In this document: piece after piece, positions 1,870 to 21,468 of the stretch
How positions within the stretch are numbered: position 1 is the first letter of the stretch
How the letters are laid out: each line of letters begins with the position of its first letter
NCBI GenBank assembly: GCA_045863235.1
Contig: BTUM01000044.1
Location: 1 to 64,000, forward strand
DNA from: Candidatus Xenobia bacterium
Lineage (GTDB): Bacteria; Vulcanimicrobiota; Xenobia; Xenobiales; QWHO01
Reading direction: 5' to 3'
DNA: 64,000 nt
The notes under the pieces: generated by a model
What the model was told of the DNA's origin: nothing
The model's input: only the letters and a program-made list of their open reading frames with translations
The model's database searches: none
Position numbers and translations under genes: made by a program

Positions 1870-1892
1870 GTACATATTTAGTATATACTCAT
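1855..1892 (+). promoter_or_regulatory. Sigma70 promoter and palindromic operator of the TA operon
   Basis: TTGACA (1855-1860), 18 nt spacer, TAGTAT (1879-1884), ATG 6 nt later; inverted repeat ATGAGTACATA..TATATACTCAT (1866-1892, 10/11 match) overlaps the -10 box and start codon. Confidence 0.75.
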
Positions 1893-2136: not shown

Positions 2137-2275
2137 ACTTGGTCGCCTTGACCGTGCCACGAAACGTGCGGTGAGAAACTTGTTTCGAACCGCTTCCAAA
2201 GTGTTGTGGCACGGGCGATGCGACGAAGTTCTACCTGTTGGGAATTCATCGCACAGTCAATGCGCGGGACTGTAA
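2134..2275 (+). repeat. 142-bp palindromic dispersed repeat, family A copy 1 (MITE/REP-like)
   Basis: 138/142 identical to the reverse complement of 61304-61445; bounded by TAA at both ends; nested inverted repeats. Confidence 0.9.
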
Positions 2276-2668
2276 TTGGTACTTTACCTGTCAGTGGCGC
2301 AGCTCGACTGGCTCCACCAGTTTCAGCTCGAGCATTACGGCGGCGGTCAGGGCGTGCGCGACCGCGGCGCCCTGGAGGCGGCTGCAGCGCGGCCAGCCAT
2401 GACCTACGGGGGAGAGGATCTCTATCCGGACCTACCCGGTAAGGCAGCCGCCCTGATGCACTCTCTGGTCAAGAATCATCCCTACGTGGACGGCAACAAG
2501 CGGGTAGGAGCCCACGCCGCGGTGGTGTTCCTGCGGGTCAACGGCTGGGACCTGGCGGCCGAGTCCGATGACCTGGAAAAGACCACCATGGCGCTGGCTG
2601 CCGGGGATCTGGACGTTGAATCGCTGACGGTCTGGTTTCGCCAGCGCTCCTTCCAGCGGTCCACCTGA
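2276..2668 (+). CDS. doc: Doc/Fic-family toxin (death-on-curing)
   Basis: GVRDRGALEAAAARP, KAAALMHSLVKNHPYVDGNKR (Doc variant of the Fic motif); TTG start. Confidence 0.9.
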   Translation: MVLYLSVAQLDWLHQFQLEHYGGGQGVRDRGALEAAAARPAMTYGGEDLYPDLPGKAAALMHSLVKNHPYVDGNKRVGAHAAVVFLRVNGWDLAAESDDLEKTTMALAAGDLDVESLTVWFRQRSFQRST

Positions 2669-4606: not shown

Positions 4607-4878
4607 GGGATAGGTTTCCCTCCAGTATGAGGCTGCGGTTGAGACTGCCCGGGAGCGGGCCAAAGTTCCGCCGCACTTCCCGGCCGGGGAGGGTCAGACC
4701 TGCCTGCGGTGGCGCCTGCAGCCTGGTCAGAATGTTCCCGCGGCCGCCACAGATTCCGGGGCTGTCGAGCCGAGTTCGCAATCTCGTCATCTGCTCGCCC
4801 GTCATTCAACGCTGCATCGACGCGGGGCGCGACGCGACCTGGCTAGCATGCGGACAGTCGATATCTCAGGAGGTCGCG

Positions 4879-5982: not shown

Positions 5983-6153
5983 GGCGGACTGCCCGACGAA
6001 CCGTACGAGGACATGCACCGAACGGCCCGAATCACAGGGCAGAAGCCGGGCCCTCAAGCAATGCTTCGCCAGCATCGATCGGCTCAAGCTGAGCTCATGG
6101 TCTGACTCACGGTCCCGGACCCTTGATCCCGGGACCGAATGGAGGAGATGAGC

Positions 6154-9100
6154 ATGCAACTGTCGACCGCTCCTGTCGTCGCTGAGTGGACCCCGATCGC
6201 GGTCACCGGTATCGGCTGCCGATTCCCTGGCAACGTCCACGATGTGGAAGCGTTCTGGGCCCTGCTCATGGACGGGGTGGACGCGGTGAGCGACATTCCC
6301 ACCGAGCGCTGGCTCAAAGCTCGCTTTCACCACCCTGACAAGGGAAAGGACTATCGCACTCCCCAAGGTCAGGGAGGCTTTCTCAAGCAGATCGACGGCT
6401 TTGATCCGGCTTTCTTTGGCATCTCTCCGCGCGAAGCTTCCACCCTGGACCCCCAGCAGCGCATGCTCCTGGAAGTGGCCTGGGAAGCTCTGGAAGACGC
6501 TGGCTATCCCCTGGAAAAGGTGGCCGGCACTCGCATGGGCGTGTTCACCGGTGCCTCGTCGCACGACTACTATGACATTCAAGACCTCGACTCGCTCACC
6601 ACCCACAGCGTCACCGGGTGGGCCATGTGCATGACCTCCAACCGTATCTCTTATGCCTTCGACCTGCACGGGCCGAGCCTGACGGTCGACACGGCCTGCT
6701 CTTCCTCCCTGGTGGCCATCCACGCGGCGGTGACCAGCATCCAGCGCGGCGAAAGCGACACGGCCCTCGCCTGCGCCGTCAACGCGATGCTCCACCCCAT
6801 CCACCACGTGGCCTTCAGTCGCCTGTCGATGCTCAGCCCCACCAGCCGCTGCCACGCCTTCGACGCAAGTGGGGACGGGTACGTGCGCAGCGAGGGGGCG
6901 GGGGTGGTGGTGCTCAAGCCTCTGGCCAGGGCCCTGGCGGACGGGGACCACATCTACGCCACCATCTTGCGCACCGTGGTCAATTCCGACGGGCGCAACG
7001 AAGGTCTCACCTTCCCCAGCGTCGAGGGCCAGATCCGGCTGCTCCAAGACGCCTACCAGGGACTGCCGATCGAGCGGGTGCGCTATATCGAGGCCCACGG
7101 CACGGGCACGGCGGCTGGCGACCCGGTGGAAACCAGGGCCATCGGCACCGTGCTCGGGCTTGCCGAACGACCGGTCAAGGTGGGCTCGGTCAAGACCAAC
7201 ATCGGTCACCTCGAGGCGGGCGCGGGCATGGCCGGGCTGATCAAGACCTGTCTGATCGCATCCAGGCGGAAGATTCCGGCCAATCTGCACTTCCACGAGC
7301 CCAATCCCAACATCCCCTTCCAGGCGCTGGGGCTGGAGATCCCCACGGCCGCATCGGATTTGCCCGAGGGCGAGGTCCTGATGGGAGTGAACAGCTTCGG
7401 CTTTGGAGGGACCAACGGTCACGTGGTGCTGGCCACTCCCCCCCTCCCGGGCGGCAAAGAGCGCCCGCCTGCCAGCCACGAGCCCCATCTGCTCTGTCTG
7501 TCGGCTCGCAGCGAAGGGGCCCTGAAAGACTTGCTGGTGAGCTATCAAGCGATCCAGGGGCCATCTCTGCGTGAGCTCGCCTACTCCAGCCTGATGCGCC
7601 GAACCCATCATCCCTACCGCGCCGCGGTGGTGGTCGAGCAGGATTTGGCCGACCTGGAGAAGGCCGTCGTGCACCCGGCCGTCCGACAGACTCCACGGGT
7701 GGCCTTCGTCTACAACGGGCAGGGGTCGCAATGGCTGGGAATGGGTCGCACCCTGCTTTCGGACCCCACCTTCAGCGCCTTCGTGGACGAGTGCGAGCCC
7801 CACTATAAGAGCCTGGCGGGATGGTCCTTGCGGGAGGCGTTCGAGCAGGACAGCACTTCCATCGATAAGACCGCCGTCGTCCAGCCCATGCTGTTTGCCC
7901 TGCAGGCCGGGCTGACGCGCATGCTGGCGGCCTGGGGCGTCGAGCCCGAGGTCGTGATCGGCCACAGCGTGGGCGAGGTGGCCTCGGCCTGGGCCTCGGG
8001 AGCTCTGGAGCTGGCCGATGCCATTCACCTGGTGGTGCATCGAGGCCGCCTGATGGACCGCGAGTCCAGCAAGGGCCGCATGATCTCGGTATCGGCCTCG
8101 GCTCAGGAGGTGTCTCGCTTCTTGCAGCCGGGTGTCTGCGTGGGGGCGGTGAACGCCCCCGGGACGGTGGTTCTGTCAGGCGAGCACCGGGCCATGGAGG
8201 AAGTCAACCAGCGCCTGCGCGACGCGGGCTTCGACTGCACCGACGTCAAGGTCGAGTACGCCTTTCACAGCGCTCAGCTCGACGTCATCGAAGACGAGTT
8301 GAAGGCTGCCCTGCAGGCACTGAGCCCCCGCCAGCCCGCTCGCACCCTGCTCTCGACGGTCACCGGCGGCCCCGTCGACAAGACCGACGCAGCCTACTGG
8401 TGGCAGAACGTGCGCTCCACGGTGCGCTTTGCCGACGCCGTGGCCCGGGCCGTATCCGACGGCGTCACGCTGTTCCTGGAGGTGGGCGGGCACCCCGTGC
8501 TGGGGCCGTCCATCAGCGAGAGCGGTGGGCGAGCGGTGGCCACCTTGCGCCGTCACCAGCCGGAGCGTCGGGCCTTTCTGCAGGCTCTGGGCGAGCTCTA
8601 CTGCCTGGGTCAGTCCCTGCAGTGGGGCGATGGAGCAGCCCCGGATTGGGTGGCGCTGCCTCACTATCCCTGGCAGCACGAGCGCTACTGGCAGGAGTCG
8701 CGTCGCGTGCACAGATTTCGCCTGGAGCCGACCCAGTACGCCATGCTCGGTTTTCAGGCCGAGCCCAATGTCTTCAACCAGCTCTTGACCTCGCAGGATC
8801 CCTCCTGGCTGAAAGACCACCAGTTCCACAGTCAGATCATCCTGTCGGCCAGCTCCATGATGGAGATGGGCTTCGAGGCGGCCCACGCCCGCCAGGGCAG
8901 CCTGCCGCTGGTGCTCGACAACGTCCACATCGACTCGGCCTGCTTCATCAACAGCCAGATGCTCCTCCAGACCATCGTCAACGAGGACGGCACTCTGGCT
9001 ATCCATGCCGAGGCCATCGACGGCAGCGAGAAGCGCACGGTCATATTCCGGGCCCACATCTGCAGCGATCCGGGGGGAATCCCGGCCAACCTGGATGTGG

Positions 9101-12100
9101 CCGCCATCGAAGCCAGGCTGCCGAGCGAGTGGCAGGGCAGCCTGTCGAAGGAGTGGGCCGCCCGAGGCCTGGTCTTCGGGCCCACTTTCGACGCCATCCA
9201 GGGAGGCCGACGCGGCCCCCGGGAAGCTCTGGCCCGGGTGCGCGGAGCTGCCCTCCTGCCTGCCGCAGACGGGCTCTCGTTCACCCATCCTGGCACCATC
9301 GACTCCTGCTTCCAGGTCGGCCTGGCCGCGCTCGACGCGGGGCTTATGGGCGAGGGCACCAACTGGCTTCCGGTGGCCGCCCGACGGGTGCGCGTGCTGC
9401 GCCCCCTCGAGGAGGAGGTGGTGGCCTTCATGCGCTGCACCCACCAGACGGCGCGCGAGCTGGAAGGAGATCTGACGGTGTGCAACCGGCAGGGCGAGGT
9501 GCTGTTCGATCTGCAGGGTTACCGCCTGGTGCGTGCGGCTGAGAGCGCGGGCGATGCCGTGGATGCTCTGTGCTACGCTCTCCACTGGGTTCCCACCGAG
9601 CTTGCGCCCACGGAGAGCTCGCCCTCGGCCGGAGGTCGCTGGCTGGTCTTCAGCGATGGCTCGAGCCTGGCCTCGGACCTGGTGGCTCGCCTTGCGGCCG
9701 ACGGATACTCGACCCAGGTCGTTCAGCCGGGCCAGAGCTTCGACATGCGTGAGGCCGGCCAGCTGGTCGGTTGCCTGCACCTTTCGGCCCTTTCGGCCAC
9801 CCTGGAGGACCCGGCCGGTCCTTTGATGCCGCTTTTGGAGATGGTGCAGCAGATCGACAGGCACCGATTGATGCCACCGCGCCTCTTCTCGGTGACCAGG
9901 CGGTGCCAGCCGGCGGGCGGCCTGGCGGTCGAGCCGCAGGGCTCTCCGGTCTGGGGACTGGTGCGCGTGCTGGCCACCGAGGACCCGGGTCTGCGGGCCA
10001 CCCTGATCGACATCCAGGACGACAGCGACGCCGAGCGAGTGCATCGCGAGCTCTTCTGCAAGCAGGCCGAGGAGGTCGCCTATCGCGACGGGGTGCGATA
10101 CGTGCAGCGTTGCCAGAGGTTCCCGCTGTCGCAGCAACCGCCCGTCCCGGTGCCTCCCCGGCCCGATCAAGGCTACGCGCTCACCTGCGAGCGACCGGGC
10201 ACGCTGGAGGCCCTGGAGTGGACCGTGCCGGCCTCCCGCGAGCCGGGCCCTGACGAGGTGCGCGTGCAGGTGGGCGCCGCCGGACTCAATTTTAGCGACG
10301 TGATGCGGGCGCTGGGTCTTTATCCCACTGAGGGCGTGCTGGGCATCGAGATGGCTGGCACCGTGAGCGAGGTGGGCTCCCAGGTCACAGGCCTGAAACC
10401 GGGCGATCGCGTGATGGGCATCGCTCCCTCCGCCTTTGCCTCCCAGGTCGTCGTGCCGCGCTCGTTTCTGGTCGCCACGCCCGAGAGCTTGAGCGACACC
10501 CAGGCGGCTGCCATGCCGCTGGTCTTCGTCACCGCTTACTACGCTCTGGTCACGGTCGGTCGACTCAAAGCGCAGGACACCATCTTGATCCACGCCGCCT
10601 CCGGCGGTCTGGGTCTGGCGGCCATTCAGATCGCGCGCAAGGTCGGGGCGCGGGTTCTGGCCACGGCCGGAACCCCTGAGAAGGTCCGCTTCCTGCACGA
10701 GCTCGGCATCGAGCACGTCTTCGACTCGCGCTCCACCTCCTTTGTGGACGGGGTTCTGGGTGTCACCGACGGACAGGGAGTGGACGTGGTGCTCAACAGC
10801 CTGGCGGGAGAGGCCCTCACCGCAGGCCTGACCCTCCTGCGTCGCTTTGGTCGCTTTCTGGATGTGACCAAGCGCGACATCTACAGCGATCTGCGGGTAG
10901 GGCTGAGCCCGTTCCGCCGGGGACTGTCCTACCACGCCATCGATCTCGAGCAGGTGATCAACTTCGATCAGGACACCGTTCAAGAGCTCTTGCAGATCCT
11001 GGTCTCAGACATCGGGGCCGGCAAGGTCACGGCTCTTCCTCTCCAGACGTTTTCCTACAACCAGGCGATCGAGGCCTTCCGCTGTCTGAGCATGGCCCGC
11101 CACATCGGCAAGGTGGTGCTGGTGGCCGAAACCCCGGAACGGGTGCAGCCCCACTGGAAACCGGGGGCGCAGGACACCTACGTGGTCACCGGCGGCATGG
11201 GCGGCTTTGGTCGCGAGGTGGTGCTCTGGCTGCTGCGCCACGGTGCCGGCCGGGTGGCCGTGCTGTCGCGCACCCCGCAAGCTCACAGCGGCTTTGACGA
11301 CCCTCGTGTCGAGGCATACGCGGTGGATGTTGGAGACCCGACAGCCGTGACCGAGCTGTTTGAGAAGCTGGGGGTGGTCCGGGGGGTCGTGCACGCCGCC
11401 ATGCAGCTCGATGACGTGCCCACCCTCAACCTCACGCGCGAGCGCCTGGAAGGGGTCTTCCAGGCCAAGATCCACGGAACCTGGAACCTGCACCAGGCCA
11501 CTGTGAAGCAACCGCTGGATTTCTTCATCATGTTCTCCTCCAACGCCGCCTGGTTCGGGGCTGCCGGGCAGGGCAACTATGCGGCCTCCAACACCTTCCT
11601 TGATAGCCTGGCCTTTCATCGACGGTCCCTCGGATTGCCCGCCCTCACGGTCAACTGGGGTCCCCTGGGGGACGTGGGCTACCTGGCTCGCAACCCGATG
11701 GTGGCTGCCTGGCTCGAACAGGGGGGAAGCAAGATGATGACTTCGGCCCAGGCGCTGCAGGGGTTGGAGAAGGCCTTGCGGGTCAATCCCACCCAGGTCG
11801 GCATCATGAACGCCGACTGGACGCTCTTGCTCAAGGCGATGGGAGGCAAACCGGTGCCTCGCTTCGAGGCGCTTCTGACCAGCATTCGCGGGGGGGACGA
11901 GAGCGGGTTGCAACACCTCGAGCACCTGGACTCAGGCGAGCGCCGGACGGCTCTTCACCCGGTGGTGATGGCCCAGGTGGCTCGCGTGCTGGGCACGCAG
12001 CCGCAAAAGATCGACGCCAGCCAGTCTCTGGTGGATCTGGGCCTGGACTCGTTGATGTCGCTGCAGCTTCGCAACTGGGTCAAGAGCACGCTGAACGTGA

Positions 12101-12270
12101 CCCTGCCCTCCAGCGCACTGCTCGAGCAGCCCTCCATCGAGAAGCTCATCGCCTTGCTGTCGGATTCGATGCAACCTCAGGCCGAAGCGAGCGACCAGGA
12201 GCTCGAGCATCTGGAGGACGACGAGGTCGAAGCCATGCTTGCCGCCATGCTCGACGACAGCCCCGTATGA
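6154..12270 (+). CDS. Single-module reducing type I polyketide synthase KS-AT-DH-ER-KR-ACP
   Basis: KS DTACSSS/EAHGTGT/NIGHLE; AT GHSVG + YAFHS; DH LKDH..HPGTIDSCFQ; ER LIHAASGGLG; KR TGGMGGFG, LDD, YAASN; ACP LGLDSL. Start 6154 chosen from RBS spacing (alternative 6139). Confidence 0.95.
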   Translation: MQLSTAPVVAEWTPIAVTGIGCRFPGNVHDVEAFWALLMDGVDAVSDIPTERWLKARFHHPDKGKDYRTPQGQGGFLKQIDGFDPAFFGISPREASTLDPQQRMLLEVAWEALEDAGYPLEKVAGTRMGVFTGASSHDYYDIQDLDSLTTHSVTGWAMCMTSNRISYAFDLHGPSLTVDTACSSSLVAIHAAVTSIQRGESDTALACAVNAMLHPIHHVAFSRLSMLSPTSRCHAFDASGDGYVRSEGAGVVVLKPLARALADGDHIYATILRTVVNSDGRNEGLTFPSVEGQIRLLQDAYQGLPIERVRYIEAHGTGTAAGDPVETRAIGTVLGLAERPVKVGSVKTNIGHLEAGAGMAGLIKTCLIASRRKIPANLHFHEPNPNIPFQALGLEIPTAASDLPEGEVLMGVNSFGFGGTNGHVVLATPPLPGGKERPPASHEPHLLCLSARSEGALKDLLVSYQAIQGPSLRELAYSSLMRRTHHPYRAAVVVEQDLADLEKAVVHPAVRQTPRVAFVYNGQGSQWLGMGRTLLSDPTFSAFVDECEPHYKSLAGWSLREAFEQDSTSIDKTAVVQPMLFALQAGLTRMLAAWGVEPEVVIGHSVGEVASAWASGALELADAIHLVVHRGRLMDRESSKGRMISVSASAQEVSRFLQPGVCVGAVNAPGTVVLSGEHRAMEEVNQRLRDAGFDCTDVKVEYAFHSAQLDVIEDELKAALQALSPRQPARTLLSTVTGGPVDKTDAAYWWQNVRSTVRFADAVARAVSDGVTLFLEVGGHPVLGPSISESGGRAVATLRRHQPERRAFLQALGELYCLGQSLQWGDGAAPDWVALPHYPWQHERYWQESRRVHRFRLEPTQYAMLGFQAEPNVFNQLLTSQDPSWLKDHQFHSQIILSASSMMEMGFEAAHARQGSLPLVLDNVHIDSACFINSQMLLQTIVNEDGTLAIHAEAIDGSEKRTVIFRAHICSDPGGIPANLDVAAIEARLPSEWQGSLSKEWAARGLVFGPTFDAIQGGRRGPREALARVRGAALLPAADGLSFTHPGTIDSCFQVGLAALDAGLMGEGTNWLPVAARRVRVLRPLEEEVVAFMRCTHQTARELEGDLTVCNRQGEVLFDLQGYRLVRAAESAGDAVDALCYALHWVPTELAPTESSPSAGGRWLVFSDGSSLASDLVARLAADGYSTQVVQPGQSFDMREAGQLVGCLHLSALSATLEDPAGPLMPLLEMVQQIDRHRLMPPRLFSVTRRCQPAGGLAVEPQGSPVWGLVRVLATEDPGLRATLIDIQDDSDAERVHRELFCKQAEEVAYRDGVRYVQRCQRFPLSQQPPVPVPPRPDQGYALTCERPGTLEALEWTVPASREPGPDEVRVQVGAAGLNFSDVMRALGLYPTEGVLGIEMAGTVSEVGSQVTGLKPGDRVMGIAPSAFASQVVVPRSFLVATPESLSDTQAAAMPLVFVTAYYALVTVGRLKAQDTILIHAASGGLGLAAIQIARKVGARVLATAGTPEKVRFLHELGIEHVFDSRSTSFVDGVLGVTDGQGVDVVLNSLAGEALTAGLTLLRRFGRFLDVTKRDIYSDLRVGLSPFRRGLSYHAIDLEQVINFDQDTVQELLQILVSDIGAGKVTALPLQTFSYNQAIEAFRCLSMARHIGKVVLVAETPERVQPHWKPGAQDTYVVTGGMGGFGREVVLWLLRHGAGRVAVLSRTPQAHSGFDDPRVEAYAVDVGDPTAVTELFEKLGVVRGVVHAAMQLDDVPTLNLTRERLEGVFQAKIHGTWNLHQATVKQPLDFFIMFSSNAAWFGAAGQGNYAASNTFLDSLAFHRRSLGLPALTVNWGPLGDVGYLARNPMVAAWLEQGGSKMMTSAQALQGLEKALRVNPTQVGIMNADWTLLLKAMGGKPVPRFEALLTSIRGGDESGLQHLEHLDSGERRTALHPVVMAQVARVLGTQPQKIDASQSLVDLGLDSLMSLQLRNWVKSTLNVTLPSSALLEQPSIEKLIALLSDSMQPQAEASDQELEHLEDDEVEAMLAAMLDDSPV

Positions 12271-13673
12271 CGCAATCGCTCACCCCGGAGCAAAAACGGG
12301 CCATGTTGGCCCGCCTGCTCAAGCAGCAGCCGGCCGTGTGCAAGACCGCCTTCATCCTGCAGGGCCTGTTCCTCGATTGCATGATGAGCCCGGGTCCGGT
12401 CTGGAACATGCGCTCCACCATCCGGTTCTTTCGCAAGGTCGACCCGGAGCTTCTGCGCAGCCGGATGCAGCGCATCATCGATCGCCATCCGGCTCTGCGC
12501 ACCACCTACGAGGTTCCTCCCGAGCACCAGCTGGATTACCAGGCCAGGATGTTGACCATCCAGCTTGACACCATGAAGCTGTATGAGCTCAACCTCCAGG
12601 CTCGGGTCGAGCAACGGGTGCATCCCTCGCACACCCTGGAGCTCACCGTCGTGGACGCCAGCAAGTGGACGGCTCAGGAGCTGCGCGAGCGCCTGCTGGC
12701 CGACGCCCTGGAGGGCTACGACCTGACCCGCCTGCCGGTCTGTCGGCTGCGCCTGTACCGACGCGAGCAAGACGACGTGATGCAGTTCGACGTACACCAT
12801 TGCGCCGCCGATCTCTGGAGCCTGGAGATCATCATGGCCGAGTTGGAGGAGCCCCGCGAGGGGCCGCCTCCCCCGAGCTTTCCCGAGTTCTGCGCCTGGC
12901 AGCACGCCTGGTTCGCCCTGCCCAAAGCCCGCGAGATGCGTCAGTGGTGGGAAAACGAGCTGCAGGGTTGTCCGGGCCTGGCATTTCCTCACTCCGTCGC
13001 CGATGACATCGCCGATTTCGTTCTCTTTCGACTCGATTGCGAGGTGCTGGCTCGGGCCCGCCAGACCTGCCGGACCCACAAGATCACCCTGTTCAACCTG
13101 TTTTTGTCGACCCTGCAGGTCACCATGGGCCGCTCGCTTGGGATCGACGACTTCCCCATCGGGGGAGCCGTGGCCAACCGACCTCACCAGCGTTTTGACG
13201 ACACCGTCGGATTCTTCGCCCAGCTGGTCTTGTACCGTCGCGATCTGCGACAGGTGCGAACCTGGGAGGAGCTCTGGGCGAAAAATCGTGTGACCATCAG
13301 CGAGGTTCTGGACCGGCAGTTCTACCCGGTCACGACGACGATGGACACTCCTCGCACCGATGTCTGGATCATGTTCCAGCAGTACCAGAAGGCGCGCTGG
13401 CTGGAGGGCGAAGCGGCTCCCAGGGGCGAGCCACTCGGACTGCGCTCGGGCGGGGTGGTGGATAGCCCTCTGGGGCCCTGGGAGTTTCTCTTCGTCGAGC
13501 CGCCCTACCACTCGTCTCCCGTGATGCTGGAGATCATCGAGCAAAACGACGGCTTCCAGGGATTGTTTCGCTATCGCACCACCTGTTTCTCGAGGAAGAA
13601 GGCCGAGTTCTACGTGCAAGACTTCCAGGCCCGGCTGCTCGCCTCACTGGCCGACCCGAGCGCGTCTATCTGA
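12267..13673 (+). CDS. Stand-alone condensation-domain / PapA-like acyltransferase
   Basis: RHPALRTTY, HHCAADLWS (HHxxxD), VANR..VGFF; ATGA overlap with PKS stop. Confidence 0.9.
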   Translation: MTQSLTPEQKRAMLARLLKQQPAVCKTAFILQGLFLDCMMSPGPVWNMRSTIRFFRKVDPELLRSRMQRIIDRHPALRTTYEVPPEHQLDYQARMLTIQLDTMKLYELNLQARVEQRVHPSHTLELTVVDASKWTAQELRERLLADALEGYDLTRLPVCRLRLYRREQDDVMQFDVHHCAADLWSLEIIMAELEEPREGPPPPSFPEFCAWQHAWFALPKAREMRQWWENELQGCPGLAFPHSVADDIADFVLFRLDCEVLARARQTCRTHKITLFNLFLSTLQVTMGRSLGIDDFPIGGAVANRPHQRFDDTVGFFAQLVLYRRDLRQVRTWEELWAKNRVTISEVLDRQFYPVTTTMDTPRTDVWIMFQQYQKARWLEGEAAPRGEPLGLRSGGVVDSPLGPWEFLFVEPPYHSSPVMLEIIEQNDGFQGLFRYRTTCFSRKKAEFYVQDFQARLLASLADPSASI

Positions 13674-14472
13674 GGTCGAAACGGAGCGTGCAGTAACCCA
13701 GGCCGCCCAGGTCCATGATGAGCTGAGACTCCTTCAGCACCGCCTCCGCCTCGGGATAGTGTCGACCCAGAAGCTGTCCGAACCAGTGGTAGGTGGGCCG
13801 CACGTGCCGGCTGATGTCGTGGGCGTGGGTCAGCACCAGTCCGACCTCTTCGCCCAGCTCTCGATAGGCCTCGAGACCGATGGCCGTGTGCGAGCCCCAG
13901 AGCGGATCGTCGGCGGTGTCGAACTGGGCCGCAGGCGCTCCTTCCGGCTGCAAGAAGTCGGTCAGGGTCAGGTTGCCTCCCGGGCGCAGAATTTGGCCCA
14001 CATGCTCGAAGAACGCCCTGCGGCTCGGAAAATGGAAGATGCACTCGAGGGCCAGGACCCGATCGAACGAGCGGGGCGGAAACTCCATCCTGCAGGCATC
14101 CCCCAGCATGAAGTCGAGCTGGTTGCCGGGGCGGGGGGAGAGTCGGCCCCTGGCCACCTCGAGCTGGCGCTCGTCGATGTTCAGACCGGTCAGACGCACC
14201 GATGAAAACTGCTCATCGAGGGTGGCCAGCGTGCCCCCGAAACCGCAGCCAACGTCCAGGATGTCCTGCCCATCCCGGATGTCCGCCAGCTTGATCAGGT
14301 GCAGGCAGAGCCGATCCATGGCCTTGATGCTATCGGCCCGGTCGAGGTAGGCGTTGTCGGGATCTTCCCAGGCGCCAAAGTGGACGTGGCGTCGGAAGGC
14401 CTCTTCGAAGTCCGGGTCGCCCTGCGCGAGCCGGGCCAGGATCATGTCGAAGTAGGGGAGCTTAACGTGCAA
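13666..14472 (-). CDS. Class I SAM methyltransferase (sterol/tocopherol/EryG-like small-molecule MT)
   Basis: HVHFGAW, ILDVGCGFGG, SFDRVLALECIFHF, LRPGG; TTG start uncertain. Confidence 0.88.
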   Translation of the reverse strand: MHVKLPYFDMILARLAQGDPDFEEAFRRHVHFGAWEDPDNAYLDRADSIKAMDRLCLHLIKLADIRDGQDILDVGCGFGGTLATLDEQFSSVRLTGLNIDERQLEVARGRLSPRPGNQLDFMLGDACRMEFPPRSFDRVLALECIFHFPSRRAFFEHVGQILRPGGNLTLTDFLQPEGAPAAQFDTADDPLWGSHTAIGLEAYRELGEEVGLVLTHAHDISRHVRPTYHWFGQLLGRHYPEAEAVLKESQLIMDLGGLGYCTLRFDLR

Positions 14473-14514
14473 TGCCAGAGCCGCGCACTTACGACGCGTT
14501 CGTCAGACCGTGCT
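14467..14514 (-). repeat. Degenerate inverted copy of repeat family B
   Basis: Reverse complement AGCACGGTCTGACGAACGCG..GTAAGTGCGCGGCTCTGGCATTGCAC shares TCTGACGAACGCG and the GTGC..CTCTGG..TTGCAC hairpin. Confidence 0.65.
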
Positions 14515-14529
14515 GAATGGGTGAGCCCA

Positions 14530-15114
14530 TCAATCAGAATCCGCTTGCGCAGCCTTCTGAGCTCTCACGGCCTTCTCGTCCTGCTCACGCTGCAAGATGG
14601 CCGCTCTCTCCGCATCCGCCTTCTTCTTGATCTCGTTGGAGGCGTTCAAAGAGGCGACCGCGATCTTCAGCCCGGCTTCCAGATCGCCGACGGCCTTACT
14701 CTCGGGGTAAGTGAGCATCAGGGCCAGGCCCTTCTTCAGGTTATGCAGCTCAACTTCCAGGGCCGACACGATGGAGTTCTGGTAGTCGGTCAGCTTGCCC
14801 GGAAGGTCGTTCTTGACGGCCGGAATGGCGTAGATCTTGAGGGCGTTGTCGGCGATTGCGTCCAGTTTCCCGATGCCCTCGATGAACTCTTCCACAGTGA
14901 TCTCGCCGCTCTGGACAGTGCGAGCTGCGGCGTGCAGCAACACGACGTAGGGTAACTCTCCGTTGTCGCTCTCCGCCCCCGCGCTCGAGCCGGACAGCCC
15001 GCCGCTGCTGACGACATCGATGCCGGACGGGTCCTCCTCGTCCCCTGCTTCGGAGATTGCTCCCTGGAGCGCTCCGCTCCAATCGGCTGCTTTGTCTTCA
15101 CCTTCTGAGCTCAT
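14530..15114 (-). CDS. Hypothetical helical-bundle protein with acidic disordered N-terminus (194 aa)
   Basis: GGAGGT RBS before ATG 15114; similar to the 57521-57901 protein. Confidence 0.8.
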   Translation of the reverse strand: MSSEGEDKAADWSGALQGAISEAGDEEDPSGIDVVSSGGLSGSSAGAESDNGELPYVVLLHAAARTVQSGEITVEEFIEGIGKLDAIADNALKIYAIPAVKNDLPGKLTDYQNSIVSALEVELHNLKKGLALMLTYPESKAVGDLEAGLKIAVASLNASNEIKKKADAERAAILQREQDEKAVRAQKAAQADSD

Positions 15115-15133
15115 TTTAACCTCCAGAAAATTC

Positions 15134-15161
15134 AAAAACCCGACCTGTGAGGCCGAGTTTT
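15134..15161 (-). terminator. Intrinsic terminator after the small peptide gene
   Basis: Minus strand AAAACTCGGCCT-CAC-AGGTCGGGTTTTT hairpin with U tract. Confidence 0.7.
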
Positions 15162-15182
15162 AGATACAAGTGTTTTCAGGAA

Positions 15183-15323
15183 CTACTTGCCGGCAATAGC
15201 GCCGGTCACGGCTTCCACGATCTTCGAGATGAGCTCCATCGCTCCCCCGCCAGCGCCACCTTTGCCGCCGCCCTTGCCGCCGCCGGCGACCGCACCAATG
15301 ATTCCACCAATCGCATTACCCAT
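15183..15323 (-). CDS. 46-aa Gly/Lys-rich amphipathic peptide
   Basis: MGNAIGGIIGAVAGGGKGGGKGGAGGGAMELISKIVEAVTGAIAGK*; GGAGG RBS 9 nt upstream, TGaGATAAT extended -10 near 15359-15367, terminator downstream. Below the ORF-track size cut-off. Confidence 0.85.
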   Translation of the reverse strand: MGNAIGGIIGAVAGGGKGGGKGGAGGGAMELISKIVEAVTGAIAGK

Positions 15324-15393
15324 GATTTGTGTCCTCCAGTGTAGTTTGACTTGGGGAAATTATCTCACACGGAGAGGGTGCATGGGAAGAGTT

Positions 15394-16371
15394 TCACATT
15401 CTTTTAACATCCCCGAGAGGCGCTTGGGATCGGCAGTCCAGGGCGAAGCGGATGGACTCGACCAGGTAGCCCATCTGCGCGTGCCAGCTGGCGATCACGC
15501 GGGTGCCCAGGCTTCCGTCCCCATACAGAATCGAGCCCTCCTGTCCGGCCAGGGTTTCGGCAAAACCAATGAGGTAGAGGGACAATCCCCGACCGGCGAA
15601 GGCAGGAGCGACGGCCACGTCGTACACGTAGAAGCTCTTGACCGTCCCCAGGACCTGGCCTTCGTGGAGGATGAGATAGCCGGCCGGGACACCCGAGGCT
15701 ACCTCCTCGAGGATGAAGTAGAGAGAGCCGCTCGAACTGGTGAGATCGAATCCGGCATAGAGCAGTTGATAGCGGAACTCGACCGTCTGAAGGTCGACAT
15801 CTCGACCGGCCGGCAGGTAGGCGGCCGGATGCGCCGCGTGCACCTCGAGAATGAAGGAGAGATCCTCGGGACGAGCCTTGCGAATGCGGTAATCGGGCGA
15901 GGACGCTCCCCGGTGTCCCCGCGGAAAGCGTCTGGCGGCACGGTTTTGCTCGGCTCGAAAGCCGCAGCGATAGAACCAGAGCTGCAGGCGCTTGTCAGCC
16001 GGGGGCAGCTCACTCACCAGGTATTCGTTCTCGAAGGCCGTCACGGTCTTTCGGGCCCGGGCCACCAGGGCTGAGAGCCCCTCGAAGCTGAACACGGCAA
16101 AGTCCAGGATCAGCGCCTGCAACTGGTGGGTCACCCCGTGCTCATCATCGAGGACGAACAAGAGGTACCCGCGTGGCTTGTCTTCCTCGACCAGCACCAG
16201 CAGCCGCCAATCGGTGAGCTCCTCGGGGCGCGTGAGATACTGGCTCAAGCGCTCGAGGGCCTGCTGAAAGTAGCTCTCTTCGTCGTAGAAGACCGAACCG
16301 GGATAGCCCATCGCCAGTTTCAAGCGCTCGAGCTCGGGCAAGTCCTCCGGGCGGGCCTTGCGAACCTGCAT
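15394..16371 (-). CDS. Tandem (double) GNAT-fold acyltransferase
   Basis: RKARPEDL occurs twice (start of each GNAT domain); motif A VYDVAVAPAFAGRGLS. Confidence 0.85.
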   Translation of the reverse strand: MQVRKARPEDLPELERLKLAMGYPGSVFYDEESYFQQALERLSQYLTRPEELTDWRLLVLVEEDKPRGYLLFVLDDEHGVTHQLQALILDFAVFSFEGLSALVARARKTVTAFENEYLVSELPPADKRLQLWFYRCGFRAEQNRAARRFPRGHRGASSPDYRIRKARPEDLSFILEVHAAHPAAYLPAGRDVDLQTVEFRYQLLYAGFDLTSSSGSLYFILEEVASGVPAGYLILHEGQVLGTVKSFYVYDVAVAPAFAGRGLSLYLIGFAETLAGQEGSILYGDGSLGTRVIASWHAQMGYLVESIRFALDCRSQAPLGDVKRM

Positions 16372-16373
16372 CT

Positions 16374-17273
16374 TCAGTGCAACCTGCGGCCAAAACGCTG
16401 GCTGTCCACGGAGAAGCCCAGGGCGTGACGGGCGAATTTGAGCGCGCGCAGGTTGCAGGCGCTGACATCACCTGCCAGCAGCGGGACGCCTCTTTGAAAA
16501 AGCAGCTGCGAGCCAGCTCGCATGATGTGGCGCACCGCCGTTCCGCCCCAATGCTCCCGGGCCACGGCCAGGTCATAGATGTAGCCGGTCTGGCCCATGA
16601 GCTCGAGGAGAAGGTGGCCGACCAGCTCCTGGCCCCGGGTCAGGACCAGGGCCGCGCACTCGGCGTCCTGTCGGCCCAGTTGATGAAAAATCGCCTCCAT
16701 CGAGCGGAACGTCAGCTCGCTGAGGTCGTAGTCGCGTTCAGCGCACAGGGTGTGCTCGAGCATCATCGAGTTGAGAACGGCGATCGAGAAGTGGTCTTGC
16801 GCCTCGGCCAGACGAACCGAGTAAGGACTTCCTTCGGGAGGGCGGCAATCGGCCGTTGCGACAGAGATTCGATGGCTTTCCAATCGGTATCCCAGGCCTT
16901 CGAGCATTTCTCGCTGGTGGCTGTCCTCGGGAGTGATCTCGATGGTGAGAAACTGCGAAGCATAGCCCCGCGCCGCGTCTGCCGCGCACTCGAGGAGGCT
17001 CCTTTGCTCCGGCAAATGCCGGGCGAAGAGGTCACAGATGACAGACTCGCGGTCGCCGGTGATGCCGCGGGTCAGACGCTTTTTCAGAACGAGGAAGCCG
17101 GTCGGACCTTGCGTTCCGTCGCAGACGTACAGGTCGTATTCGGACTGCCAGGTGTCATCCTCGCGCACGCGCTGGTAGAAAGCCTCGTTGCAGGGAGAAA
17201 TCTTCCTCTCGGTTAGCGCAAGGACGCCCTGAAGGTCGGTGGAGCTGGCCAGGCGGGGTTTGGGTTGGTCCAA
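16374..17273 (-). CDS. Tandem (double) GNAT-fold acyltransferase
   Basis: PRLASSTDL / VRLAEAQD domain starts; IYDLAVAREHWGG; NLRALKF..LGF; paralog of the downstream gene. Confidence 0.8.
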   Translation of the reverse strand: MDQPKPRLASSTDLQGVLALTERKISPCNEAFYQRVREDDTWQSEYDLYVCDGTQGPTGFLVLKKRLTRGITGDRESVICDLFARHLPEQRSLLECAADAARGYASQFLTIEITPEDSHQREMLEGLGYRLESHRISVATADCRPPEGSPYSVRLAEAQDHFSIAVLNSMMLEHTLCAERDYDLSELTFRSMEAIFHQLGRQDAECAALVLTRGQELVGHLLLELMGQTGYIYDLAVAREHWGGTAVRHIMRAGSQLLFQRGVPLLAGDVSACNLRALKFARHALGFSVDSQRFGRRLH

Positions 17274-17367: not shown

Positions 17368-20300
17368 TCAGCGCTTCTTGACCACCACGCCGCCCACCAG
17401 CACGCGCTGCTCCTCCTCGGCCAGCCCCAGCCCGGACTTCTTGCCCAATCCGAAGCCCGTGCGGTAGACCTCGCTCAGCTCTTTCAGTTTGGCCGGCTCG
17501 TAGCCCCGCGAAAGTTGGGCGGCCAGCTCGAAGTAGGCGTCCACATCCTCGCTGGTGCGGATCTCGGGGGTGGTCAGCGCGGCCAGCACCAGGGCGTGCC
17601 GGGTATCGGCCTGCTCGACCTGCTCGCAGCTCACCCGCGCGATGGCGGCCGCTTTCTCGGAGCGCGAGGCGAGCTCTTGCAGCACCTTCTGCTCTTTGGT
17701 GGCATCTCCCAGGACCAGGAAGCCCTGAGCGAAGGCGTCCAGGCTCAGAACGCCGGGGTTCTCGAGCAGGATGCGGGCCACGGGATAGCCGGGCTGGGAG
17801 GACCAGCCGGCCACCCGGGTGGCCTCGGTTTTGGTATCGGGGTATTCGCTCAGCACGCTCACCACGGCTCGGGCCAGGCCCTGCTGGTCGTAGGGCTTGT
17901 TTCGGTCGGTGCTCTGGTGGATGGTCCGGTCGATCTCCTTGAGCACTTCGCGGGCCTGGGCGCTGGTGGCGATGGGGCGGTCGGACAGTCCCAGGCGATA
18001 GGCCGCCTCCTTGAGAGCCGGGCTGTAGACCTGCTCCATGACGGCCTTGCCCAGGGTGGCGGTGGGCGTCTTGCGATCGGCCAGAACGTTGGAGCGCAAG
18101 GAGGTGTCGCCGGGATCGGCCGCCAGCGCATAGCGCTTGAGAGCCCCCGGGTCGTCGGCGTTGGGGGTCTTGAGCAGCTCGGCCACCGGACCGAAAGGCA
18201 GGCCCGGCTTCCAGGCGGCTACCCGGGCCGCCGCGTCCTTGGTATCGGGGTACTGCTGCAGGGCGTCCAGGGCGTAGGTGCCCAGTACGTTGAAGTTGTG
18301 GTTCTTGTAGGAGTCGTTGGCAGTTTGCAGGGCGCCGCCCACCTCCTGCAGCCAGGCGGCCACCTCCACCCCGCTGTCGAGCTTCTGGTGGCGCAGGCTG
18401 GCCTGGTAGGCGGCGTGTTTGGCGGTCTGAGAGTAAAGCTGGTCGTACAGCTTGAGGACCAGGTCCGCCCGGGGTAGCTCGGCCATGCGCCTTTTTTGGA
18501 AGACGGCGTCGCTCGGGTCGCAGGCCAGCGCCACCTTCAGGAGATCGGGTCGAGCTGGATTGTTGACCAGCGCCTCGGCTACCGCGCCCGGCCGTCCGGG
18601 TTCCCAGGCCAGCACCCGCTCGGCTGCGGAGCTGGTATCGGGGAAGCTCTTGAGGGCCTCCAGAGCGGCCCCGCCCAGGGCCTGGAGGCTGTTGTCCTTG
18701 TAGCTGTCGTCGGAAGCTCGCACGGCGGCAAGAGCGCTCTGGAACATCCGGGCGGCCTCGATTCCGGTGGTGACGGTGGGATGAGCCAGCGCGGCCCGCA
18801 TGGCCTGGGTCTTGCCCTGGCCGCTGTAGCAGCTGTCGTAGGCCTTCTGCATCAGCGTGGCGGCCCGCTCGGTGGCCGGGTCGGCCTTCAGCTCGGCCAG
18901 CACCCGGGTCTCCATCTCCTGGTCGCCAGGACTGCCCTGCAGCGCGATCTGCCGGAACTCGGCCGGCGTGCTGGCGGTTGGATTCCTGAGCAGTCCGCTG
19001 GCCACGCCGTGGGGCCTGCCGGGCTGCCAGGCGGCAACCTTGCCGGCCGCTTCCCGGGTGTCGGGGAACTGCTGCAGAGCCTGGAGCACGGCTGTCCCAA
19101 GTCCCATCTGGTTGGTCGACTTGTAGCTGTCCTGCGACTGGCCGATCTGCTGGTCCACCGAGCTGAACATGGCGGCGGCCTCCAGGCCGTTGCTGATGCT
19201 TGCATGGCGCAACGCGCCCTGGTAGACGGCGTGCTTGCCAATGGTGCCGTAGATCTTGTCCATGGCCAGCAGGCCCAGGTCCGCGGCCGCGGCCGTGGAG
19301 GGGTCGGCTTTCAGCTCGGTCAGCACCCGTTTTTGCATCTCGGTGTCGTTGACGTCGGCCCCCAGCGCGATCTGGCGCAGCTCCTCGGGGGTGGTGGCGG
19401 TCGGGTGCTCGAGCAACGCGCGGGCCACCCCGTGCGGCGAGCCTGGCTGCCAGGAGGCAACCTTCCCAGCCGCCGCCTGCGTGTCCGGATACTTTTGCAG
19501 GACCTCGATGGCGGCCGTTCCCAGGGCGTTCAGGTTAGAGTTCTTGTAATAGTTGTCCTGGCTGCGCTGGATGCGGCGAGCGATGATCTCGAGCATGCGG
19601 GCGGCCTGCACCCCGTCCCCGATGCTGGGGTACTGCAGAGCCGCTTTGTAGGCTGCGTGCTTGCCTGTCTGGCCGGGGCATCGGTCCCAGACCGCCCGGG
19701 CCACCCCGGCCGCCGCGGCCGTGGTGGGATCGGAGGCCAGCTCGTCCAGAACGCGTTTCTGGGCCTCCTGGTCGTGGGGCTCCACGCCCAGCGCCACCCG
19801 GCGCAGCGCTTCGGGAGTGCTGGCGAGGGGCTTCCTGAGCAGAGCCCGCACCGGGCCAAAGGGGTAGGCCGGAGCCCAGCCGGCCACGCGGCTCGCGCTG
19901 GCCTGCGTCTCGGGAAGCTCCTTGAGCAGCTCCAGCGCGATGCTCCCCAGGTTGGCCCGGGTCTGGTTGGCGTGGTAGTCGGAGGCAGGGGCAACTTCCT
20001 CGACTGCCTCGCGCAACAGAGCGGTCACCTCGCCTCCATGGTGACGTAAAGCCGCTCGAAAGAGGGCCATCTTGCCGGCTTCGGTGGAGCACTTGCCGAC
20101 CGCCCTCTCGGCCAGCTCCGCCGAGCGCGCCGTGGCCGGGTCGGCCTTCATCTCCTCGAGCACTCTCTGGCGCAGCTTCTGGTCCCCGCTCTCGACCCCC
20201 AGGGCCAGGGCGCGCAGCTCGTCGGGCGTCCCGGCGGTAGGGTTTTTCAGCAGCTCGCGGGCCGGGCCGAAAGGCGAGTCGGGCTCCCAGGCGGCCAGTC

Positions 20301-21468
20301 GGGCGGCTCCCGCGCCGGTATCCTGGTACTGGCCCAGGATGGCGATGATCGACTTGCCCAGGCTGACTCGATCTTGCGAGCGGTAGTAGTCCTGGCTGGC
20401 GTCGATGGCCGCGACGATCGGCTCCAGGAACCGGCTCACCTCCACCCCTGTGCTGACGGGAGGCAGCTTGAGGGCGGCCTGGAATACGGCCTGGCCCGAC
20501 TCGCCCCCCTTGAGGCCTGCTTTCGCCATGAGGGCGACAGCGGCCACGGCGGCCGTCTCGGGGCGGCCCTGCAAGAGCTCCAGGAAGCCTTTCTGAAATT
20601 GCAGGCTGAGCGTGAGCTGCTGGCCCAGTTGGACCACCTCGTTGGTGGGCAGCTTCTCCACCTCGCGCAAGATGGCCGGCATGACCCGCGCTTCGCCCCA
20701 CTGCTTGATCATGCCCTGGATCGAGGCCGCGTCGGGCTTGAGCTCGAAGAGTTGCCGGGCGGCGGTGGGGCTCTGCGACTCCTGGCGCAGCTGGGCAAAG
20801 CGGACCAGGCTGGCCTCGAGATCGGGAGTTGTGACGGGCAGCCAAACCTCGCCCTCTCGTCCTACCTGGCGAGGTTGCGAATCACCGTAGGAGGCACGCC
20901 GTCGGTTCTGGTCGTCGAAGAACTGGTAGCCCTTGAGCTCGAGCTGGCCCAGCGCGTCGTGTTGATAGAAGGCCGCCAGCCCGGGCAACCCGGCCAGCTC
21001 CAGGGCCAGCTTCTGGTCATTCACCTTGAGCTGCACGCTCAGCTTGTGAGCCGGATCGGTGAGGGCGTTGTAGGCGCCGTAACCGCCGACGTTGCGGCCC
21101 TCCGGGTCGACGAAGGTGGGCCCGAGCTTCTCCAGAACCTGGAGCTCCTCGCCCGTGGCCGCGTGGGGGAGGAGCTGGACCGGACGCAGCCCGCTGAACA
21201 CGGCCACCTCGGTCAGGTCTTGCTCGCTGAGCAAGGGCAGCGTGACGCCCTGGTGCACCACCTGCAGGGGGCGCTTCCCCTCGCGGAGCTTCTCGGCCGT
21301 TTCGGCAGCGTCGAGCTTGCGGGTGCCAAACCACCAGCGCCGCTTGGCGCGGATCTCGACCCCCGCGTCCAGCACGTCCTGAGCGACCCGCTCGAGCGTG
21401 TCGTCGGCAGCAGGCGTCGAGACCGCCTGGCTGGGCCGGGCGGTCGGACCGATGGGACGGATGTTCAC
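17368..21468 (-). CDS. Large helical repeat protein (1366 aa, seven ~140-aa repeats) with family-specific N domain and C-terminal tag
   Basis: Seven recurrences of A(A/G/S)W.P..P.G..LL..P; terminus EEEQRVLVGGVVVKKR; GTG start 7 nt after TAGCCT. Confidence 0.85.
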   Translation of the reverse strand: MNIRPIGPTARPSQAVSTPAADDTLERVAQDVLDAGVEIRAKRRWWFGTRKLDAAETAEKLREGKRPLQVVHQGVTLPLLSEQDLTEVAVFSGLRPVQLLPHAATGEELQVLEKLGPTFVDPEGRNVGGYGAYNALTDPAHKLSVQLKVNDQKLALELAGLPGLAAFYQHDALGQLELKGYQFFDDQNRRRASYGDSQPRQVGREGEVWLPVTTPDLEASLVRFAQLRQESQSPTAARQLFELKPDAASIQGMIKQWGEARVMPAILREVEKLPTNEVVQLGQQLTLSLQFQKGFLELLQGRPETAAVAAVALMAKAGLKGGESGQAVFQAALKLPPVSTGVEVSRFLEPIVAAIDASQDYYRSQDRVSLGKSIIAILGQYQDTGAGAARLAAWEPDSPFGPARELLKNPTAGTPDELRALALGVESGDQKLRQRVLEEMKADPATARSAELAERAVGKCSTEAGKMALFRAALRHHGGEVTALLREAVEEVAPASDYHANQTRANLGSIALELLKELPETQASASRVAGWAPAYPFGPVRALLRKPLASTPEALRRVALGVEPHDQEAQKRVLDELASDPTTAAAAGVARAVWDRCPGQTGKHAAYKAALQYPSIGDGVQAARMLEIIARRIQRSQDNYYKNSNLNALGTAAIEVLQKYPDTQAAAGKVASWQPGSPHGVARALLEHPTATTPEELRQIALGADVNDTEMQKRVLTELKADPSTAAAADLGLLAMDKIYGTIGKHAVYQGALRHASISNGLEAAAMFSSVDQQIGQSQDSYKSTNQMGLGTAVLQALQQFPDTREAAGKVAAWQPGRPHGVASGLLRNPTASTPAEFRQIALQGSPGDQEMETRVLAELKADPATERAATLMQKAYDSCYSGQGKTQAMRAALAHPTVTTGIEAARMFQSALAAVRASDDSYKDNSLQALGGAALEALKSFPDTSSAAERVLAWEPGRPGAVAEALVNNPARPDLLKVALACDPSDAVFQKRRMAELPRADLVLKLYDQLYSQTAKHAAYQASLRHQKLDSGVEVAAWLQEVGGALQTANDSYKNHNFNVLGTYALDALQQYPDTKDAAARVAAWKPGLPFGPVAELLKTPNADDPGALKRYALAADPGDTSLRSNVLADRKTPTATLGKAVMEQVYSPALKEAAYRLGLSDRPIATSAQAREVLKEIDRTIHQSTDRNKPYDQQGLARAVVSVLSEYPDTKTEATRVAGWSSQPGYPVARILLENPGVLSLDAFAQGFLVLGDATKEQKVLQELASRSEKAAAIARVSCEQVEQADTRHALVLAALTTPEIRTSEDVDAYFELAAQLSRGYEPAKLKELSEVYRTGFGLGKKSGLGLAEEEQRVLVGGVVVKKR

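Follow-up and report, generated by a model that had tools for sequence, protein, structure and literature searches.

What is encoded by a 46-amino-acid (aa) open reading frame (ORF) that follows two tandem acyltransferase genes, and what is done to its product? The question is raised by contig BTUM01000044.1 of a Candidatus Xenobia bacterium (genome G000), of which a stretch of 64,000 nt, here called the window, was analysed. The core genes of the locus all lie on the minus strand: two tandem acyltransferases of the GNAT family, GNAT1 (16374..17273) and GNAT2 (15394..16371), the precursor peptide ORF (15183..15323) and an acidic helical protein, here called the partner (14530..15114). Together they represent a cassette that is real, conserved and larger than had been reported in a first-pass annotation of this DNA. 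The preferred reading, which we hold at about even odds, is that the locus specifies a leaderless lipopeptide system akin to the peptides that are made on ribosomes and then modified (RiPPs), in which a side chain of the peptide would be acylated, here with a chain made by a neighbouring polyketide synthase (PKS).

The peptide gene and its cassette

The 46-aa ORF is a real coding gene as judged by its promoter, ribosome-binding site, terminator, mostly synonymous codon changes and matching RNA-library contigs. ORF calling and translation returned the sequence quoted in the first-pass annotation, and the signals described there were recovered: a GGAGG ribosome-binding site (15333..15337, minus strand) 9 nt before the ATG, a 70-bp gap to the GNAT2 stop, and a promoter-like site (15359..15388, minus strand) with an extended -10 (TG-n-GATAAT) and TTCCCA 18 nt upstream. 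This was the sole promoter-like site within 3.8 kb (shuffle mean 0.3), and the pattern TTCCCA...TG-n-GA(T/G)AAT recurs upstream of close orthologues. The intrinsic terminator between the peptide and partner genes was likewise confirmed as a hairpin of 12 pairs with a T tail (15135..15161, minus strand). The terminator scan is weak alone, as its 3 terminator-like sites hardly exceed the mean of 2.8 in shuffles; a hairpin with a T-run was found behind the peptide gene in 13 of the 22 loci examined. Just upstream of the -35 lies a motif of the TGTGAAA type (15388-15400, minus strand) that overlaps the end of GNAT2, is kept in close orthologues and is a possible regulator site.

Codon changes in the peptide gene, given as synonymous/non-synonymous, were 3/0 against G001, 6/1 against G002 and 14/4 between G007 and G035, with two less conservative comparisons involving G031 (9/7 and 8/9). 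RNA-library coverage was drawn from 4 of 15 listed runs. One contig from a sludge RNA library spans 14779-15331 with 2 differences and a second, from a relative, spans 14309-15912, which demonstrates presence in RNA libraries and is no proof of transcription or translation. The RNA contigs of X2 and X3 leave a gap at 15526-16079 that is not interpretable as lower GNAT expression. The ORF had been called unannotated; it is not wholly uncalled, however, because a letter-identical entry is present in the ESM Atlas. A similarity search of that resource with the peptide gave no usable match, which indicates neither novelty nor absence. Pfam gave no match for the window peptide and NCBIfam no relevant match for 19 family peptides. 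A paralogue in the peptide's own genome was considered and rejected, as the best tblastn match (C59) is a different Gly-zipper protein.

The cassette, consisting of a tandem GNAT, a Gly/Lys-rich peptide and a zinc-ribbon/four-helix protein, is present in multiple copies in Vulcanimicrobiota (class Xenobia and kin). Loci were fetched around strong matches of a partner profile (n=61), and a short ORF led by a ribosome-binding site was called upstream of the partner in 54 of them (47 by a strict and 7 by a relaxed rule), two of the seven misses being at contig ends. A family GNAT was found within 2.2 kb of the partner in 47 of the 61 loci. The peptide is more tightly tied to the helical partner than to the GNAT (54 vs 47 of 61 loci). 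A search with GNAT2 gave matches in 40 of 61 genomes and yielded 27 tandem-GNAT loci, of which 22 contain the peptide; two misses are contig ends and three are genuine. Conservation of a short Gly/Lys-rich ORF beside this GNAT family, as foreseen, is upheld by these counts and extends to rearranged loci, the gene order being shuffled (GNAT-peptide-partner, peptide-partner-GNAT, opposite strands) with linkage kept. On whether the peptide occurs independently of the GNATs the picture is mixed, as the linkage in GNAT loci is set against 8 of 54 peptide loci that have no GNAT nearby. A comparable upstream ORF occurs at 2 of 2315 genes of G000, one being this locus, under a background rule of at least 25% Gly that 39 of the 54 cassette peptides satisfy. 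The counted loci include kin and hence are not independent; the cassette nonetheless recurs in many paralogous clades.

Of 301 genomes of the phylum, 65 were matched by the partner profile, a single genome having as many as 8 matches and the 207 genomes of family f15 none. The GNAT profile matched 81 clusters at E<=1e-30 among 1.84 billion representatives, which makes for a small family. A genome scan outside the phylum gave weak partial matches only (4 to 5 of 21 loci), and no relative of the partner protein was found in viral contigs.

Tandem GNATs, acceptor sites and the polyketide block

The GNAT genes had been described as two paralogous two-domain enzymes, and this description holds. The proteins are 23% identical over 259 aa and Pfam detects the C-terminal halves only of both; a structure model of GNAT2 has the tandem GNAT fold (pLDDT 90.3), and GNAT1 would share it, as it matches the tandem profile across positions 38-314. 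The CoA-type loop of GNAT2 is recognisable in the C-terminal domain only, and that of GNAT1 is degenerate (W-G-G-T-A-V), likewise in many members without a PKS. When 60 tandem GNATs were placed in a quick maximum-likelihood tree, GNAT1 formed one well-supported clade and PKS-linked GNAT2 another. The latter has a long branch, and the Asn that follows G-D-x-S in most other members is lost from it. Close GNAT1 orthologues were found in 9 of 44 genomes searched. The tandem arrangement reported earlier is true in the window but limited as a rule, since GNAT1 precedes GNAT2 in G000-G002 only; it travels with the PKS, lying directly upstream of it in G009, G023, G029 and G033, and is at a contig end in G003. 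Some members of the GNAT family have a P450 neighbour, and P0096 is a P450-GNAT fusion.

It had been proposed that a double GNAT similar to N-myristoyltransferase (NMT) acylates the N-terminal Gly after Met removal. In favour of this are the tandem fold, the presence of NMT structures among the fold-search matches and weak sequence matches of the C-terminal domain to N-alpha-acetyltransferases, and residue 2 is Gly in the window peptide and in 21 of 54 family peptides (Ala in 22, other in 11; Gly or Ala in 43). The best fold-search matches of GNAT2 were, however, bacterial tandem GNATs at 12-18% identity, with NMTs at rank 41 or lower (TM 0.40), and residue 2 is Ala, Asp, Ile, Glu or Pro in 33 of 54 peptides, including 4 of 11 close orthologues. 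As the N-terminal Gly is not conserved, NMT-like chemistry is considered highly improbable; N-terminal acylation that lacks Gly specificity may still occur.

Side chains are better candidates. The window peptide consists of a hydrophobic N-segment (residues 2-13), a Gly/Lys linker (14-28) and an amphipathic helix (29-44; hydrophobic moment 0.62 over residues 29-39) ending V-T-G. The 54 family peptides measure 40-142 aa (median 63 aa, median 35% Gly) and all contain at least two Lys. Their best-kept feature is a C-terminal amphipathic helix, in many preceded by Pro, that ends [ALV]-K-G; this motif was found within the last 32 residues in 29 of 43 non-PKS peptides (shuffle mean 7.1, maximum 17). 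In the 11 PKS-linked peptides recovered the helix ends [VIL]-T-G in every case and [ALV]-K-G in none. Lys17, Lys34 and Thr40-Gly41 are conserved in all 11, each of which keeps G-G-K-G in the linker and a Lys in the helix, and none has a Cys. The histone-like GKGG, read earlier as a recognition motif, does not hold as a family motif (21 of 54), though GGKG is present throughout the PKS-linked peptides. A His-rich subfamily of 83-89 aa occurs in the same cassette type and still ends L-K-G (L081:5454-5714, L082, L083, L091, L094).

A parallel for side-chain acylation was found within the GNAT family itself. In G000, single-domain GNAT paralogues lie behind a UPF0489/PF12640-TPR gene whose product has metal motifs of the arginase type. 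This arginase-like gene gave 56 matches in 24 of 44 genomes, and a family GNAT was present in 28 of the 30 loci fetched, two loci being one split gene. Of 14 loci in the C77 orthologous group, 11 carry a Gly-rich precursor in which the residue after Arg6 is Gly or Ala. The combination of Arg6 precursor, arginase-like TPR protein and single-domain GNAT (G000:C77:8006-10602, L177; also L202-L231) is widespread in large-genome Xenobia, and such loci are candidate ornithine-acylated protein systems in their own right. A helical protein at C77 was considered as a homologue of the partner, was absent from the partner-profile matches and was not counted.

According to PMC8784127 and PMC13647313, a PF12640 arginase makes ornithine from Arg for GNAT acylation in selidamides, and arginase-free clusters acylate Lys. 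That the arginase/GNAT split mirrors selidamides is the strongest reason for which side-chain acylation of the cassette peptide is inferred. The GNAT family would thus probably acylate side-chain amines of Gly-rich ribosomal peptides, namely Lys of [ALV]-K-G where an arginase is absent and Arg-derived ornithine where a peptide-arginase-like gene is present. Of the routes suggested earlier for the peptide as GNAT substrate, the Lys or side-chain one has gained this family-internal parallel of arginase-like gene, paralogous GNAT and Arg precursor, but the N-terminal Gly one was not supported.

The first-pass annotation was right as to the core genes but overlooked a PKS, a condensation domain and a methyltransferase, with which the cluster reaches to ~6139. 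The PKS (6139..12270, plus strand; true start maybe ~15 codons further in) is a single-module reducing type I enzyme with Pfam domains in the order KS-AT-DH-ER-KR-ACP and all catalytic residues present (KS Cys/His/His, AT Ser, DH His/Asp, KR Tyr, ACP Ser). It is followed by a stand-alone condensation-domain protein (12267..13673, plus strand; PF00668 E 1e-35, HHxxxD at 177) and by a SAM-dependent methyltransferase of small-molecule/lipid type (13666..14472, minus strand; Pfam Methyltransf_25). A phosphopantetheinyl transferase is encoded in the genome. The PKS is 74-95% identical beside related cassettes. The 12 genomes with a GNAT2 at or above 57% identity are the same 12 that, among 44 searched for it, have the condensation domain at or above 68%; the other genomes of family f2 all (8 of 8) have a divergent GNAT2 and no condensation-domain match. 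The reducing PKS may iteratively build a reduced acyl chain on its ACP. GNAT1/GNAT2, the condensation domain or both would transfer this chain to the peptide, for which Lys17, Lys34, the N-terminus and Thr40 are candidate sites, and the methyltransferase would tailor it; we give this scheme slightly less than even credence.

Several observations weigh against the lipopeptide reading as a whole. The window peptide is without the K-G site of its family, and a T-G end occurs without a PKS in two peptides (G013a, G005:C48). No close GNAT1 match was found in G004, G007, G031 or G035. Three tandem-GNAT loci with intact flanks are without a peptide (G033:C142, G060:C53, G057:C175), and GNAT was not seen near the 8 peptide loci mentioned above. 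In G031:C32 and G041 a related condensation domain is present but the cassette is not. The arginase assignment consists of sub-cut-off matches (Pfam E 0.003, NCBIfam peptide arginase E 0.0005) together with metal-binding motifs. Finally, the PKS co-occurrence and the K-to-T change amount to one evolutionary event, since the PKS-linked subtype is a single clade.

This single origin is also what would be expected if two systems lay side by side, with the GNAT2-peptide-partner cassette acylating or acetylating from ordinary CoA/ACP donors and the PKS, condensation domain and methyltransferase (and perhaps GNAT1) making a separate lipid after being inserted once beside it. The PKS and cassette are on opposite, convergent strands, and a distance of ~22 kb separates PKS and cassette in G017, with GNAT1 ~28 kb further. 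The best NCBIfam models of the PKS (a Pks2-like architecture) and of the methyltransferase (including Mtf2 and phthiotriol methyltransferase), all below cut-off, are mycobacterial lipid enzymes, and 43 of the 54 peptides have no PKS. Nevertheless, block and cassette are neighbours in 9 of 12 genomes, at different chromosomal sites in three genera, and in two more genomes (G029 and G035) a contig end interrupts the block. Moreover GNAT1 derives from the cassette family, PKS-linked GNAT2 has the long branch and lost Asn described above, and the methyltransferase gene directly follows the partner gene, co-oriented with it, in PKS-linked loci. Two independent systems are on this balance unlikely, and acylation of the peptide within one system is preferred.

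Further genes were noted around the block. A second condensation-domain copy is accompanied by a sulfotransferase and a reductase-like gene in place of the PKS (L162:12341-15797, G031:C32). A PlsC-type acyltransferase just upstream of the PKS (4627-5982, plus strand) is syntenic only in G002 among the loci checked. A gene of the HDAC family, the product of which could remove acyl groups, adjoins the cassette in G019, precedes or is close to the PKS in G007, G035 and G031, and is close to the cassette in G046 (L036:11231-12199; L160:9744-10682; L166; L161; L042). Near the PKS in genus g4 an ORF of ~90 aa with repeated P-F-G-N-C-W-G-T looks like a separate repeat-core RiPP precursor (L160:7554-7832, L161:7906-8178, L166:9645-9923).

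The four-helix partner and a type III-like export cluster

The helical hypothetical protein noted earlier downstream of the peptide stands, but its start is most likely the ATG at 15114, which has its own GGAGG, and not the TTG at 15135. In the AlphaFold model the protein (pI 4.5) is a four-helix bundle with a disordered acidic N-part. An N-terminal zinc ribbon is present in 5 of 19 aligned members, which are the most distant homologues. Pfam and NCBIfam gave no match for the partner, no FliS/FliT Pfam match was obtained in the 19 members, and Foldseek gave nothing at E<=0.001. A wide structure search returned generic bundles: the comparison with the FliS-type 5xef gave Z 9.5 (rmsd 5.3, 103 aligned), with designed bundles scoring higher (Z 11). 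The best ESM Atlas score of 0.76 indicates neither novelty nor absence, and a predicted complex of partner residues 48-194 with the peptide (score 0.25 against a mark of 0.32) was used neither for nor against an interaction. In the proposed mechanism the acidic four-helix protein would bind the peptide's amphipathic C-terminal helix while it is in the cytoplasm and so act as a chaperone or as a self-protection factor, and we are evenly divided about this role.

A double-glycine leader, suggested earlier, is not supported: the locus holds no C39 peptidase, nor a C39 peptidase/ABC exporter with precursor and conserved leader. Two C39 matches lie on other contigs of the genome, and action in trans is possible. 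The cassette has no signal peptide, protease or transporter. A survey of 240 neighbours of 41 loci (17 of 58 loci were excluded as the partner ORF was not picked there) returned no recurring transporter or protease beyond genus synteny and the PKS block, and WXG100/type VII export gave no match in G000.

These results bear on the possibility of a leaderless cationic bacteriocin of the aureocin A70/garvicin KS type, with the four-helix protein conferring immunity and the GNAT shielding the producer by neutralising lysines. Cationic, amphipathic, Gly-rich and leaderless peptides, an acidic four-helix neighbour and a strong promoter of their own would fit. This explanation is nevertheless the least probable of those considered, since no bacteriocin model matched, no recurring ABC exporter was seen in the neighbour survey, there is one peptide per locus, and the PKS block and the arginase pairing are left unexplained.

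Because the cassette encodes no signal peptide, protease or transporter, a type III-like exit was proposed for the lipopeptide. G000 contains a flagellum-type export cluster (G000:C27:55986-79252, L175/L176) with FlgB/C, FliE/F/G/H/I/J, FliM/N/O/P/Q/R and FlhB/A, of which FlhA, FliI and FliF are over cut-off and the remaining components were read from sequence. Three identical tandem 81-aa genes within it were read as needle-like and have no family match. No flagellin match was found in G000, and five further stand-alone FlhA C-terminal-domain proteins are encoded elsewhere in the genome, over cut-off. The cluster looks like a type III system of a non-flagellar, undescribed kind. In G000 a short homologue of the partner is found 1.7 kb away from the needle-like genes (E 4e-4), and in 4 of 13 further loci such homologues are neighbours of needle-like genes or of the export gate. 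Across the phylum, 53 of 301 genomes gave a match to the needle-like gene, none of them in f15. Counting against the link are the weakness of its profile matches (E 1e-4 to 1e-10) and the lack of a needle-like match in genus g4 and in G046, both of which hold cassettes. Chaperone-guided type III export of the peptide is a lead, not a result. That the product leaves via a flagellin-less type III-like apparatus, and then either targets the membranes of prey or competitors or serves as a lipopeptide of the cell surface, is conceivable though doubtful.

The same surroundings would suit another explanation, in which the peptide serves as a harpin-like export substrate or as a structural subunit, unmodified or at most acetylated, and has a cognate chaperone, the GNAT acting elsewhere or tuning charge, perhaps reversibly with a deacetylase. 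The closer linkage of peptide to partner than to GNAT argues for this, as do partner homologues found next to the type III-like cluster and next to other Gly/Met-rich ORFs, and the HDAC-family genes at or near cassettes or their PKS. On the other hand, the GNAT is kept in 47 of 61 loci despite reshuffling, the pairing of K-G as opposed to arginase with R-G(A) points to the basic residues of the peptide, and the four-helix match to FliS is not above background. It is accordingly rated as distinctly unlikely, below the two-system explanation, and a modified peptide is still favoured. In its widest form the lipopeptide proposal would describe a superfamily that spans the lineage, its leaderless peptides being lipidated after translation, recognisable by a zinc-ribbon/four-helix chaperone, and secreted through a type III machine that derives from the flagellum but has no flagellin. 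In the present subtype the reducing PKS and the stand-alone condensation domain would join a polyketide chain to the ribosomal peptide, possibly by an ester bond to Thr in place of the ancestral acceptor Lys. Taken as a whole this form is improbable.

Long multi-repeat partner homologues occur beside Met/Gly-rich harpin-like ORFs (G000:C61, C51, C1, C64; L179-L182), and one also adjoins a TIGR03975 RiPP radical-SAM methyltransferase, over cut-off. Two large repeat proteins of the window (17368-21468, minus strand; 35855-40108, plus strand) have Ser/Pro/Thr-rich N-termini and no family matches and are possible export substrates. The former, encoded by a 1366-aa gene upstream of GNAT1 that is syntenic only within the genus, has internal repeats of ~141 aa and ends V-G-G-V-V-V-K-K-R. 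An AbrB-like and Fic/Doc-like gene pair (1891-2668, plus strand) is likely a toxin-antitoxin module.

Comparison with known systems

To our knowledge, known ribosomal lipopeptides carry a cleaved leader and a ring-forming enzyme, which are the targets of genome-mining rules. As neither is present, cassettes of this kind would escape such mining. No description of the cassette was found in the open literature, a scope that does not extend to subscription papers (among them those that first reported goadvionin, lipolanthine and aphotorhaptin) or to supplements at bioRxiv; in the supplements of PMC9259500 annotations of GNAT, T3SS and T1PKS are present and the system is not among the rows listed. 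The cassettes also bear on how relatives of Ca. Eudoremicrobium (PMC9259500), which are biosynthetically rich and supposedly predatory, might attack cells. The family offers 54 natural peptide-enzyme pairs with a built-in prediction, namely K-G without arginase, R-G/A with arginase and T-G with PKS. If the proposal were true, this would possibly be the first condensation domain acting on a ribosomal peptide, tandem GNATs could be used for site-directed peptide lipidation, and RiPP-type maturation would be tied to an undescribed type III-like export system.

The tandem fold with a CoA-type loop in the C-terminal domain only is shared with bacterial tandem GNATs (MAB_4324, clavulanate Orf14, Legionella VipF and MshD), which differ at 12-18% identity and TM 0.45-0.54 to GNAT2, and none of which is known to us to act on a co-encoded peptide. 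NMTs have the fold in common as well, but their obligatory Gly2 substrate is not matched here. In mycobacterial pathways, Pks2/MAS together with a PapA-type acyltransferase and a methyltransferase make lipids in which the acceptor is a sugar or diol. The likeness extends to the KS-AT-DH-ER-KR-ACP synthase, the separate condensation-fold acyltransferase and the methyltransferase; all matches are below cut-off, however, and a peptide cassette is attached here. FliS/FliT flagellar export chaperones and harpin-type substrates are comparable in that a small acidic four-helix protein, with homologues by an export gate, neighbours a Gly-rich substrate whose C-terminal part forms an amphipathic helix. 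They differ in that no specific structural or profile match was obtained, and in the zinc ribbon and modifying enzymes of the cassette.

Hallmarks of goadvionins and lipolanthines include a class III lanthipeptide synthetase, a Cys decarboxylase, a C-terminal Cys and a cleaved leader. Like the window locus, goadvionins, lipolanthines and lipoavitides combine PKS or FAS genes with a GNAT beside the precursor, and the ACP-dependent transfer of a polyketide to a peptide by the goadvionin GNAT GdvG could serve as a model for GNAT1 (10.1101/2023.10.25.564083; PMC11685415). Those products are N-terminally acylated after leader removal and carry avionin/aminovinyl-cysteine rings. The ORFs of the present locus, in contrast, include no lanthipeptide synthetase, decarboxylase or protease, the peptides have no Cys, and there is an extra stand-alone condensation domain.

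Selidamide GNATs are single rather than tandem. Selidamides (kamptornamide, phaeornamide and nostolysamides) are otherwise alike in having a GNAT beside a ribosomal precursor, with Lys as acceptor where there is no arginase and, as in the sister loci here, a PF12640-type arginase with an Arg-rich precursor (PMC8784127 and PMC13647313). Unlike them, the cassette peptides examined (the window peptide in Pfam, 19 peptides in NCBIfam) have no NHLP or Nif11 leader ending in Gly-Gly. No LanM/class II lanthionine synthetase is present among the ORFs of 4.6-21.5 kb, in keeping with the Cys-free PKS-linked peptides. The cassette further differs in its tandem GNAT, its dedicated block of PKS and condensation domain and its obligatory four-helix partner. 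Judged by its gene content, the system appears to resemble selidamides and goadvionins in logic while belonging to neither.

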